Assembly (NCBI GenBank): GCA_964016885.1
Contig: OZ024764.1
Span: forward strand, 5,022,001-5,086,000
Source: Eledone cirrhosa
Taxonomy: Eukaryota
DNA: 64,000 nt
Direction: 5' to 3'
A program made the position numbers and the translations under genes. Positions 15,419 through 62,665 of the stretch are shown one piece after another. A model generated the notes under the pieces. That model saw nothing but the letters and a program-made list of their open reading frames with translations, searched no databases and was not told where the DNA came from. Within the stretch, counting starts at the first letter, position 1. Every line of letters starts with the position of its first letter.

Positions 15419-15460
15419 GACTGTTCCACTGCAGAGTTCCGCTAGAGGAAACAGTGACGA
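15419..15460 (+). CDS. Putative symmetric micro-exon 2 (class B, 42 nt, phase 2-2; TVPLQSSARGNSD)
   Basis: tttaac-tatattttttgtaatcacAG | gactgttcc...agtgacga | GTAAGT. It has 11 substitutions versus exon 5, 10 of them at codon positions 1/2 in phase 2. Confidence 0.75.
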
Positions 15461-15666
15461 GTAAGTTTTAGTTTTACACACTATCTAACCATTATTCTAT
15501 CTGTTCCTTCCCGTCTCTCTCTCTCTTTATATATATATATTTATATATACTAAGGTGTATTATTGGTTGTGTAAAACGGTCCAATAAATTTTTGTTAGCA
15601 ATATTAAGTTCTCCACACTTTTGTATATCTCCAATTCCATTCAAGGGAACAGCTAGATGATGTAAA

Positions 15667-15753
15667 AAAATCCGAAGGCAAGGTAAAATTTCCAATCATT
15701 TTAATCATGTCGTGATTAAAATGATTGGAAATCTTACCTTCCCTTCGGATTTT
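15667..15753. repeat. Near-perfect palindrome ~200 nt downstream of class B exons
   Basis: aaaatccgaaggcaaggtaaaatttccaatcattttaatca-tgtcg-tgattaaaatgattggaaatcttaccttcccttcggatttt. Longer (~105 bp) copies lie at about 29124-29229, 37297, 49457 and 62885. Confidence 0.9.
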
Positions 15754-15761
15754 CATTTTGA

Positions 15762-15796
<35 letters not shown>

Positions 15797-15814
15797 GACT
15801 CTGTCTCTTATAAA

Positions 15815-16070
15815 CCACGTTGGCTATTATGACACTCTCTCCAACATAGAGAGCTATGTTGGCGATTATGACTCTCTCTCTCCCTCTCTATGTTGGCTAT
15901 TATGACGCTCTCTCTCTCTCTATGTTGGCTATTATGACTCTCTCTCTCTCTCTATGTTGGCTATTATGACTCTCTCTCTCTCTATGTTGGCTATAATGAC
16001 TCTCTCTCTCTCTCTATGTTGGCTATAATGACTCTCTCTCTATTTATGTTGGCTATTATGTCTCTCTCTG
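15815..16070 (+). repeat. ~30-bp minisatellite TATGTTGGCTATTATGA(CT)n
   Basis: Tandem units with a variable (CT)n tract. Paralogues with different unit counts lie at about 29290-29705, 37445-37790, 49648-50005 and 63040-63398. Confidence 0.95.
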
Positions 16071-16389
16071 TTCAAGCTTTATGAAGTTAGATGAACATCT
16101 TCAAAGTCCTCCCATATTCGCCTTGTCTAATATGCGTTCTTGTACCTGATTATTTCCCCCAAATCTCCTGGGAAGTTATAAACCATGATGGCTACCTATC
16201 TCACAATTTCTCTCCTGCCCACCCCCTCATACCACCATAGTCTATTCGACCAATCAAACCTCAGAAACATGTCCCCACCCATTACCAACCCCAACAAACT
16301 CTGCCATTACTACTACTTCTACTTTTCTTCTAACCCTTACCAGCCCCAACAAACCCTGACATTATTACTACTATTGTCCTTCTAGCCAT

Positions 16390-59094: not shown

Positions 59095-59357
59095 TATATA
59101 TATATATATATATATATATATCATCATTATCATTTTATGTCCGCTTCTCCCTGCTTGCAAGGGTTGGGCTCTCACCACCACTGGCCATGTTTTTCGTGGT
59201 CTTCCTTTTACTGGGATTTTTTAGCACCTCTTTACCCAGCAGTCATCCTCGATGCGCATCACTTGTCCATACCATCTCAGTCTTCTCTCCTGCACACCAC
59301 AACTCATCCCCAGTTTCTCTCTCAACTCATCTATGGTCTTGTCGTTCACGCACATTG

Positions 59358-59393
<36 letters not shown>

Positions 59394-60812
59394 TAATTAC
59401 ATTGACTGATTAATAGCTCTTGTTAATTTTAAAACCATTCTGTTGAGAGCTTAATTCGTTTTGTGATATTTTGCAATTTTGCAATAACACACATACTGAA
59501 TTCATCCGCCAAATCTAAGGGCTGCCCCCCCCCCCCCCCTGTGAAGCCCCACGTGGGTTTTGATAACGGTCAGTCCTTGGCTTGGCACTGAACTAAAAGC
59601 CTGTTGAGAAAGTGACTTCCTTGTTCGATCATCATACCAAAAGCTTAACATTATTTGTCTAAGTAGACAGTACTTGATTTAGGAGTTGCAGAAACCCAAT
59701 ACTGGATATTACCAACCTTCCAGGGGTCCGGGTATAATTTTCCATCATATTTTATTTGTTTTACTCGAATTACTTGGTCGTGTCTATGGCTGTGCGGATA
59801 ATTGTTTAACCATCGTCTCAGTGTGTTTGGCCTTTTAACTTATGTTGTTGCTCTAGTTCACTAGCTTCTATGGAGCGCTTGCCACACATCTCGGAAGTTG
59901 TTTTTCGTTAATTTCCAATAGCAGAAATGCAATTCTCGCTAATTTATATATATATATATATATATATACACGTATAATGGATAACAAAATATCGTTATAG
60001 GTAATCCAGGTAGAAGTTGTGAATACTCTGTATTGTGGTTAGTCTTAGTCTACGGCGTTGTTTGACTCAACAAGAGGTTTCCGTAGGTGGCAAGTATTTG
60101 AGTTCTCTTGAATTTCTATGTAAGTTTATCTTGGAGTAATAATATTGAAAGCGTGAAGAATAACATGGTCAACAGTACAAAAGAAGGTTTTTATTTACAG
60201 TATTAACAATTGTTTCACTGATTAAGTTGTCTAAAAATCGCTGAAAACTTAAAGCTGTGCCACTCAATCTACTATATATATTGGAAGTGGTCGGACGTTG
60301 TATATTTAAGTAAATAAGTAGGTGTAGTCGGATAAACGTCGAAACGGCTTGGTAGAATGCAGCGAAAATTTACACAGTTATGCAGAATTGTAGCAGTTAA
60401 TGATGATATATATGTAAAAGAAATAGGATTTCGCTTCAAGCATATCTTTATACAATATGTATAAATATTTTGTATCTCCAAAGAAATACGGTTTTAGGAA
60501 GCCTTAGCTCTGCAAACCCTGGGGGGCTAACGTCCTCTGGTGATGTCCAGCAGAAGCAAGGGGGACAACCGTCTATGCATTTCAGGCTTAACTGACCATC
60601 GTCTGGACAGTCCCTCCCACTGCTTGCGACTGCTGGCCAGTTAAGCATGAAATGCATAGACGGTTGTCCCCCTTGCTTCTGCTGGACATCACCAGAGGCC
60701 TTGAAACCCTAAGTCCCTTTTGCTCTGTGTATGAACAGAAATAAATAATGTAATATATATATATGTATGTGTGTATCTATTTATATATTTAACTATTTTT
60801 TTCTCATTACAG

Positions 60813-60842
60813 TCCCACAACTACTGCTTCCATGAAATTTAT
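60813..60842 (+). CDS. Putative symmetric micro-exon 10 (class A, 30 nt, phase 2-2; PTTTASMKF)
   Basis: tttttttctcattacAG | tcccacaactactgcttccatgaaatttat | GTAAGT. Phase 1 has a TGA stop, and there are 10/30 mismatches to its direct paralogue, exon 7. Confidence 0.75.
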
Positions 60843-62209
60843 GTAAGTGTTACCTTAACAAACTGTCTAACCATTGTTTAATCTGCTCCTCCCTCTACCT
60901 CTCCCTTTATACACACACACACATATATACCCCTATATATATATGTATACACACACACACACAAATATATACACATATATACATATATATATACACACAT
61001 ATATATACATATATACAAGCGAGACACGGCCTGCTGACCAATCTCGTCTTAAGTGGGACAAAACCGTCCAACCCATGCTAGCATGGAAGATGGACTTTAA
61101 ATGATGATGATATATATACACTGACACATATATATACATATATACAAATATATATACGCATATATCTATATATATATATATGAGTTCAAGTCCGCCGAGG
61201 TTAACTTTGCCTTTCATCTTTACGAGGTCGATAAAATAAAGTACCAGTGGTGCACTGGGGTAATCGCTGGCCTTGTGCCAAAAGTAGAAACTATATTTAT
61301 ATATATATAACCAAAGATTAATATGGTTCGTTGATTACTCAACGAATACAGTTTTACAATAGATTAGAAGCACTCAACAGTGAAAGTTTTCCTGGAGTTT
61401 TTAATATTATTCAAAATATTAACAAATGAAAAATATTCTCATAATCAAAATATATACTTTATTATATATATTTCAAAGGTATATGACATACCTCTACGGT
61501 CTTGATTATTCAATTCCAGTATTGGCAGTGACTATATATTTATAGGCAAAATGAATAATGAAAGAGTTGCAAGCCGTTAAAACATATCTTTATAAAGCTC
61601 TTACATATGTTATATATATATATATCATCATCATCAGCAGCGAGACCTGGGCACTGTGTGTAGAAGATCTGTAAAGATTGGAAAGAAATGAGCCTCCATG
61701 CTTCAATGGATGTGCCATAGTAATATATGCAAATGGCAAAACATAAATGTACTGTGAGAGGATTTAGGCATAAGAGGGATTAGATGCAGTGTGCAGGAGT
61801 GGGATTGTTTTGGTATAGACATGTGATGTGTATGAAGGGTGACAGCTGTATAAAAAGGTGCCGAACAAACAAAGTTGACAGAAACCGTGGAGTGGGCAGG
61901 TCTAGGAAGACTTGGGATGAGGTAAGGAAAGCTGATTTTGCACAATTACACCTAGCTAAGGCAATGACACAGGATGGTGACCTCTGGCGCTATGCACAAT
62001 TATAGAGGACTACATCCACAATCCACCAGACATTTTCCCTACCAACACCCCACACAAGTTCCCAAACCTCACCATAAAGTGGTCCCGCTGCAGCCATGAC
62101 AAACGTGTCCAGTCCACACTGTACAGTGGTCTTGTAGGTGTCTTGCCAAAAATCAATATTGGGCCTTAAAACCTTGAGTCCCTTTTGTTCTGTGTATGAA
62201 CATAAATAA

Positions 62210-62543
62210 TTGTTTCTACTTTTGGCACAAGGCCAGCAATTATCCAGTGCATTACTGGTACTTTATTTTATCGACCCCGTAAGGATGAAAGGCAAAGTTA
62301 ACCTCGGCGGGATTTGAACTCAGATCATACAGGGAGGTAACTATGCTTCAAAGCATGGCGTCCGACTCTCTACCGATACTGCCAATCCACCGCCTGAACA
62401 TAAATAAATAATTGGTTCTACTTTAGGCACAAGGCCAGCAATTACCTAGTACATTACTGGTACTTTATTTTATCGACTCCGTAAGGATGAAAGGCAAAGT
62501 CAACCTCGGAGGGATTTGAACTCAGATCGGAAAGGGACGTAAC
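62210..62543 (-). mobile_element. Two tandem antisense Meta-like SINEs
   Basis: Same as the first two copies at 48580-48913. Confidence 0.75.
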
Positions 62544-62623
62544 TAAATAAATAATGTAGTATATATATATGTATTTGTGTGTGTATCTATTTATATATTT
62601 AAGTATATTTTTTGTAATCACAG

Positions 62624-62665
62624 GACTGATACAGAGGAGGGTACCGCTCCAGAAAATAATGACGA
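62624..62665 (+). pseudogene. Micro-exon 11 (class B, 42 nt; TDTEEGTAPENND) with mutated donor, probable pseudo-exon
   Basis: The acceptor gtaatcacAG is intact, but the donor reads GAAAGT instead of GTAAGT. The exon differs from exon 8 by 1 nt. Confidence 0.65.

Follow-up and report, generated by a model that had tools for sequence, protein, structure and literature searches.

A large array of symmetric micro-exons ahead of an M13 peptidase-like gene in Eledone cirrhosa, with a replacement excess in one exon class

The micro-exon array

The window analyzed here is a 64,000-nt stretch of the 3.0-Gb genome of Eledone cirrhosa (contig OZ024764.1, henceforth C25, positions 5022001-5086000). It lies within a tandem array of micro-exons upstream of a gene of the M13 (neprilysin-like) peptidase family, and one class of these exons, class B, has diverged with a marked bias toward amino-acid-changing substitutions. 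Reading the array from C25:4822001-5486000, we found 103 units on the + strand between C25:4871418 and 5399532, a run of about 530 kb comprising 54 copies of class B, each 42 nt long and falling into 20 alleles, and 49 of class A (35 alleles, 27-78 nt). The window (1..64000, + strand) contributes 11 of them, which combine one acceptor context with either of two donor contexts. The units have been copied in tandem along with their introns, which are duplicated, repeat-filled and 90-99% alike.

Five of the window units are 42-nt class B exons on the + strand. Exon 2 (15419..15460, TVPLQSSARGNSD, phase 2-2) belongs to subtype B2, while exons 4 (28857..28898, TDTKESTALEKNE), 5 (37048..37089, TDTKESTAPEKND), 8 (49195..49236, ADTEEGTAPENND) and 11 (62624..62665, TDTEEGTAPENND) belong to subtype B1. 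Exon 11 has a donor GA instead of GT, the sole case among the 54 B copies, and is probably skipped in splicing; the other window B exons sit between AG and GT. The remaining units, likewise on the + strand, are class A: NTTNFSEKF (5510..5539, 30 nt), TTTFTPLKNI (22677..22709, 33 nt), an internally extended exon of 78 nt (44424..44501), TYIIDYKKF (47195..47224, 30 nt), ICFTNIKKKL (58000..58032, 33 nt) and PTTTASMKF (60813..60842, 30 nt).

The array has retained a single reading frame. Lengths divisible by 3 were found in 100 of the 103 units (27-78 nt), all in one phase, and 99 of the 103 also have a GT donor; the three units whose lengths are not divisible by 3 have degenerate donors. An earlier sequence-only reading of the window had assigned the exons to phase 2, and this assignment is borne out: none of the 55 distinct alleles has an in-frame stop in phase 2, compared with 41 and 21 of the 55 in the other two frames, and every junction among the 99 x 99 intact units is stop-free. 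Further, the transmembrane (hydrophobic) exon downstream of both array and window, at C25:5413283, starts in the micro-exon phase, and the ATG-bearing initiator exon of two of the three paralogs of this gene on C25 (Q and S, described below) ends in phase 2; the frame is therefore anchored on both sides. At 30 of the 98 neighbor junctions the joined exons spell ATG, class A mostly ending in AT and class B mostly starting with G (e.g., window 22709/28857), and these junction-made ATGs could be alternative starts.

Splicing of the array exons

Evidence for splicing comes from run X4, one of four runs that contain the locus; none of the four is recorded as RNA, and X4 was taken as such from its GT..AG joints and exon-only cover. 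Its contigs have GT..AG joints exactly at two predicted introns of the peptidase part, joints that run X1 does not have. Across window positions 37025-37115, nine X4 contigs cover 37048-37090, that is, exon 5, with zero cover of the flanking intron, while two X1 contigs continue through. These nine contigs differ from the 37048 exon by 0-3 letters and therefore stand for B1 copies generally. Before the B1 exon, the loose end of three contigs is identical over 14 of 14 letters to the 3' ends of class A exons, that of the 47195..47224 exon among them; behind it, a B2 exon mixed with the last class A exon would account for 30 of 30 letters in the loose end of four contigs. Exons of the DYKKF and IHFT types belong to the main array, and neither type is among the six micro-exons of paralog P. 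With A-to-B1, B1-to-B2 and B1-to-A ends thus matched, the array exons are joined to one another: given a run inferred as RNA, the micro-exons are spliced head-to-tail with their neighbors and not as one of many. The joins recorded by the contigs are local ones.

Replacement changes in class B

The sequence-only reading had held that the class B exons of the window show only amino-acid-changing substitutions. Its pairwise counts were reproduced: exons 2 and 5 have 11 differences, 10 of them at codon positions 1/2 plus AAC/AAG at position 3; exons 4 and 5 have two (L/P and E/D); exons 5 and 11 have three; and exons 8 and 11 have one. Its statement that no purely synonymous difference exists fails at codon 11, where exon 2 has AAC and exons 8 and 11 have AAT, all coding for Asn. 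This silent difference may have arisen through AAG, and one of the paths open to the AGA/CCA codon likewise includes a silent step. By themselves, the five window copies yield 15.5 non-synonymous (N) to 1.5 synonymous (S) changes (P=0.10), and the 11/11 non-synonymous differences between exons 2 and 5 have P=0.024-0.058, varying with the transition bias. Taken alone, then, the window copies are no more than suggestive.

The whole array gives a clearer picture. As a neutral control we took 227 alignment columns of the intron that follows the exon; 50 of the 54 B copies have this block, and the four without it, all B3, were excluded. This block has accumulated 25 minimal changes (25/227 = 0.11 per site), and the B exons of the same 50 copies have 27 minimal codon changes, 25 N to 2 S, distributed as 12/10/5 over the three codon positions. 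Binomial and simulated tests of this ratio gave P=0.036, 0.016 and 0.007 at kappa of 1, 2 and 3.75, respectively. Non-synonymous changes per site in the B exons (0.92) are 8.3 times the intron rate (P=5e-12), and synonymous changes per site (0.18) do not differ from the intron rate (P=0.36). The upstream flank was tried as a second neutral control, and its alignment is broken by rearrangements resembling short interspersed nuclear elements.

Other treatments of the data point the same way. A spanning tree of all 20 B alleles yields 37.5 N to 3.5 S (P=0.012), and fitting a codon model to 16 alleles returned an omega (dN/dS) of 12.1, where the log-likelihood is -191.40, compared with -197.79 for an omega of 1 (doubled difference, 12.8); across estimates, omega for the B copies is about 4-12. 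Between subtypes B1 and B2 the divergence is 0.43 at codon positions 1+2, 0.12 at position 3 and 0.03 in the intron, and B2 alone has 10 N to 0 S (P=0.026). The signal sits in B1/B2, mostly between the two and within B2. Paralog S contributes 5 N to 1 S among seven copies of its B-type exons, which is not significant alone.

Thus, class B has a genuine excess of replacement changes, one that is small in number and centered on B1/B2. The earlier description survives as a strong bias, that is, 25 N to 2 S over 50 copies, with its "only" being too strong. Positive selection, as the sequence-only reading proposed it, would have been contradicted by an even spread over codon positions or a dN/dS at or below 1 in a larger set of copies; with the array-wide set, dN/dS remains above 1 and the spread uneven. 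Because non-synonymous changes outpace both silent and intron changes across the array, class B appears to be under diversifying selection. Their status as exons is supported by the RNA-type cover and the exon joints, and translation itself is suggested by the frame and the substitution pattern.

The host gene, its paralogs and its predicted tail

The M13 peptidase exons lie at C25:5416318-5629520, downstream of the array and the window. PF01431 matches three C-terminal exons of this main copy, the last with E=4.8e-6 and 26.8 bits (cut-off 24.5) and the two others below the cut-off with E=4e-4 and 5e-3; in an exon-by-exon scan 4 of 7 queries match, one of them from a paralog. PF05649 is weak, with E=0.01 on one of eight exons. 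A search against solved structures returned neprilysin/ECE-1 as the best match. The main copy has the NAFY and ENIAD motifs, while its zinc motif reads HKIFH in place of HExxH (an assembly base only), without the catalytic glutamate, and all four copies read LLFW in place of CxxW. By the criteria laid out in PMC8223033, the main copy is predicted to be neprilysin-like and inactive. Across 13 peptidase exons, the N:S counts of the main copy are 74:16 vs paralog S, 34:7 vs Q and 10:1 vs P, with pN/pS of 1.5-3.2, none significant.

Other searches were less informative. A genome-wide PF01431 search gave nine matches, all on other contigs, missing the host locus because its exons are short. Six PF01431 exon matches cluster at C24:7510384-7821460 and mark further M13 genes. 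A homologue search with one peptidase exon of 58-59 residues found none at E<=0.001 among 43 candidates; a peptidase-exon search of 1.84 billion representatives returned two matches, both to unrelated repeat proteins; and the same single-exon query against the ESM Atlas reached a best score of 0.75, which is uninformative. These searches yielded neither a full-length homologue nor an alignment or fold. We also considered and rejected an alpha-2-macroglobulin/TEP bait region: PF00207 has seven matches in the genome, none on C25, and the flanking exons are M13.

The three paralogs on C25 differ in the number of micro-exons and in the zinc motif: P has six (HEIFH), Q one (HQIFH) and S nine (HEIFH). 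In paralog Q, the initiator and one basic exon read as a basic tail of 21 residues ahead of the anchor, the usual short tail of a type II protein. An inverted copy of the whole locus on the minus strand, C25:7150000-7365000, is 94-100% alike, with six micro-exons, HEIFH and an internal 52-kb duplication, and represents either a segmental duplication of recent origin or a haplotype put in the wrong place. The main copy at C25:5415255-5420103 and Q at 7499081-7503910 are 97-100% alike, and about 75-80% alike at the micro-exon and anchor exon; from sequence comparison this stretch looks like a gene-conversion tract.

Joined together, the 99 intact units would encode 1,306 residues with a net charge of -110 and no hydrophobic stretch. 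The 19-residue hydropathy peaks at 3.04 in the anchor after the array vs at most 0.49 within it, so that a single hydrophobic segment stands between the array and the peptidase domain. Neither the array nor the initiator exons of Q and S have a signal peptide or hydrophobic stretch. The known M13 members have a type II layout with a small cytoplasmic N-terminus (PMC2259306), and on this basis the array product is predicted to lie in the cytoplasm, where it would form an acidic tail of low hydrophobicity, at most about 1,300 residues long.

A start codon was sought in the main copy and not found; the candidates are an ATG at C25:4869136, which precedes a weak phase-2 donor, and an ATG created at an exon junction. 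At C25:4857863-4859085, a likely 5' non-coding exon has a 26-bp unit in about 43 tandem copies, which is single in paralog Q, and the repeat is followed by a 25-codon open reading frame kept in both the main copy and Q.

Competing explanations

We consider it probable that class B represents duplicated symmetric micro-exons of an M13 gene, spliced head-to-tail into 14-residue acidic tail modules that evolve under diversifying selection. One ancestral juxtamembrane exon, of the kind that is single in paralog Q, would have been tandemly duplicated together with its introns. Since the copies are multiples of three in phase 2-2, the gain, loss or skipping of any one would leave the frame intact, and new B copies have since fixed replacement changes at a far higher rate than silent or intron ones. 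The product would be a membrane-anchored non-peptidase, the variable tail of which may be the working part. As for what drives this, our best guess, which we stop short of calling likely, is that the tail serves as a surface for binding or as a decoy in a molecular conflict, either with a parasite or in gamete or mate recognition. More doubtful still is the full picture of a dead neprilysin with a combinatorially spliced, copy-number-variable tail of up to 100 modules, the class B part of which would be evolving in a race against some partner inside the cell, amounting to a cytoplasm-facing design of independent origin like that of the micro-exon genes (MEGs).

A number of observations weigh against diversifying selection on such a tail. 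The whole B-copy signal consists of 27 changes, and the tree-based omega is probably inflated by gene conversion between copies, which makes them non-independent. Using all 54 B copies, the ratio is 44.5 N to 7.5 S (P=0.023, or 0.05 with the most silent paths); subtype B1 alone gives 8 N to 1 S (P=0.24), and B3 shows no bias at 5 N to 2 S. Nor is there a bias among the close alleles of class A, for which 33 N to 14 S corresponds to an omega of about 0.7 (34 alleles after dropping three 53-nt broken-donor copies; 18 same-length links of <25% difference). The evidence taken as RNA consists of contigs of one run, from a sample that differs from the assembly. Besides its HKIFH motif, the main copy has lost a cysteine and the ATG-bearing half of the initiator exon present in Q and S, and with it the orthologous ATG; its peptidase pN/pS is about 1.5, not different from 1, so constraint may be weak across the whole gene. 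Finally, strong diversifying selection on a cytoplasmic tail would be without an obvious agent.

The main rival draws on several of these points. It takes the exons to be a free spacer on a decaying gene under relaxed constraint: exon changes would be neutral, introns would be homogenized by conversion, and the lack of silent changes would be small-number noise or the outcome of splicing-enhancer constraint. The degraded motifs and missing ATG of the main copy, the peptidase ratio near neutrality, the omega of near 0.7-0.85 in class A and B3, and the P of 0.10 for the window copies alone are all in its favor. We nevertheless judge it unlikely. Relaxed constraint predicts silent changes, whereas the synonymous rate per site equals that of the intron and the non-synonymous rate is 8 times higher; the intron control shows no abnormally low divergence, given that duplicated blocks of several kb are 90-99% alike over their whole extent; and a free spacer sits poorly with 55 stop-free alleles and in-frame lengths in 100 of 103 units.

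Two further alternatives concern how the modules are used. They might be extracellular (glycosylated, protease-bait or mucin-like), through an N-out insertion or a released tail, with the selection coming from outside the cell. Such a placement would suit their richness in T/S/N, their 37 N-x-S/T sequons and a hypervariability typical of exposed surfaces; yet composition alone would lead one to expect an estimated 30 or so sequons, leaving no clear excess, a signal peptide was not found upstream, the anchor is preceded by basic residues, and it is the peptidase part that keeps paired cysteines, as is expected of a luminal M13 domain. We therefore regard extracellular modules as improbable. Least probable is a mutually exclusive cassette, akin to Dscam or the ECE-1 isoforms, in which one module per mRNA sets the sorting of the enzyme. 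The single such exon of paralog Q, the symmetry of all units and the many class A units that end in basic or YxxF-like residues, fitting a place beside the anchor, are compatible with it, but the A-to-B1, B1-to-B2 and B1-to-A joins in X4 contradict its strict form, though some modules may still be skipped.

Comparison with known systems

M13 peptidase tails are normally a few tens of residues long. According to PMC2259306 and PMC8223033, active neprilysins are recognized by HExxH, ENIAD, NAFY and CxxW, and the Drosophila Nepl proteins are mostly predicted to be secreted. The gene described here resembles neprilysin/ECE and Nepl in its predicted type II layout, in NAFY and ENIAD, and in a lineage-specific expansion that includes copies without catalytic residues. 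It differs from neprilysin and Nepl in the 103 micro-exons ahead of the anchor, in having K within the HExxH motif of the main copy and Q within that of one paralog, and in the loss of CxxW from all four copies. The ECE-1 isoforms a-d, with short tails made from four alternative promoters (PMC2567069), likewise confine variation to the N-terminal cytoplasmic portion of an M13 protein, a position that is predicted here; unlike them, the present gene uses tandem exon copies that are joined together and diverge by replacement changes.

Schistosome MEGs, according to PMC4350168, encode secreted proteins with a signal peptide and are described as restricted to flatworms, and SmVAL6, like the present gene, grafts micro-exons onto a known domain. 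The array shares with both very small symmetric exons, repeat-rich introns and a high dN/dS, in this case in B1/B2 and not in class A or B3. Unlike MEGs, it consists of near-identical recent duplicates whose product is predicted to sit on the cytoplasmic side, ahead of a membrane anchor, and it has no hydrophobic stretch that could serve as a signal peptide.

Dscam-type clusters consist of tandem, mutually exclusive exons with variable coding and conserved flanks. The array is like them in its tandem duplicated, alternative-looking exons and unlike them in that these join each other.

A homologue of neprilysin-1 is reported from the salivary and digestive glands of another octopus in the available part of PMC12607849, which shows no link to the present gene. 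The parts of PMC11703226 and 10.64898/2026.09.05.749416 that were available do not describe the host gene or the array, and searches of an open-access library turned up no description of the architecture, a micro-exon array ahead of an M13 anchor. What is new here is the splice evidence together with a selection test resolved by exon class. A recently expanded tail of 103 exons with a replacement excess is a clear case of protein innovation through micro-exon duplication, and the four paralogs on one contig form a natural series of 1, 6, 9 and 103 micro-exons. They offer a testable system for the origin and diversification of symmetric micro-exons outside parasitic flatworms, of a kind that is easily missed by annotation.

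Repeats and copy number

The duplicated introns are made up of a 15-bp minisatellite (consensus ATAGGGTAGGTTACC) at window 655-2074 and in 10 more blocks, fragments of long interspersed nuclear elements in both orientations, and a short inverted repeat that follows every B exon. A 46-bp satellite extends over >107 kb of a peptidase intron of the main copy (C25:5458400-5566000, + strand) and over about 6 kb in the inverted paralog. In run X1, window positions 37025-37115 are matched by two contigs, one B1 and one B2-like, vs 30 and 20 copies in the assembly. Depth on these contigs is 73 and 94, vs 14-32 on low-copy pieces; depth is no copy number, and this is a weak hint that the X1 sample has fewer array copies than the assembly.

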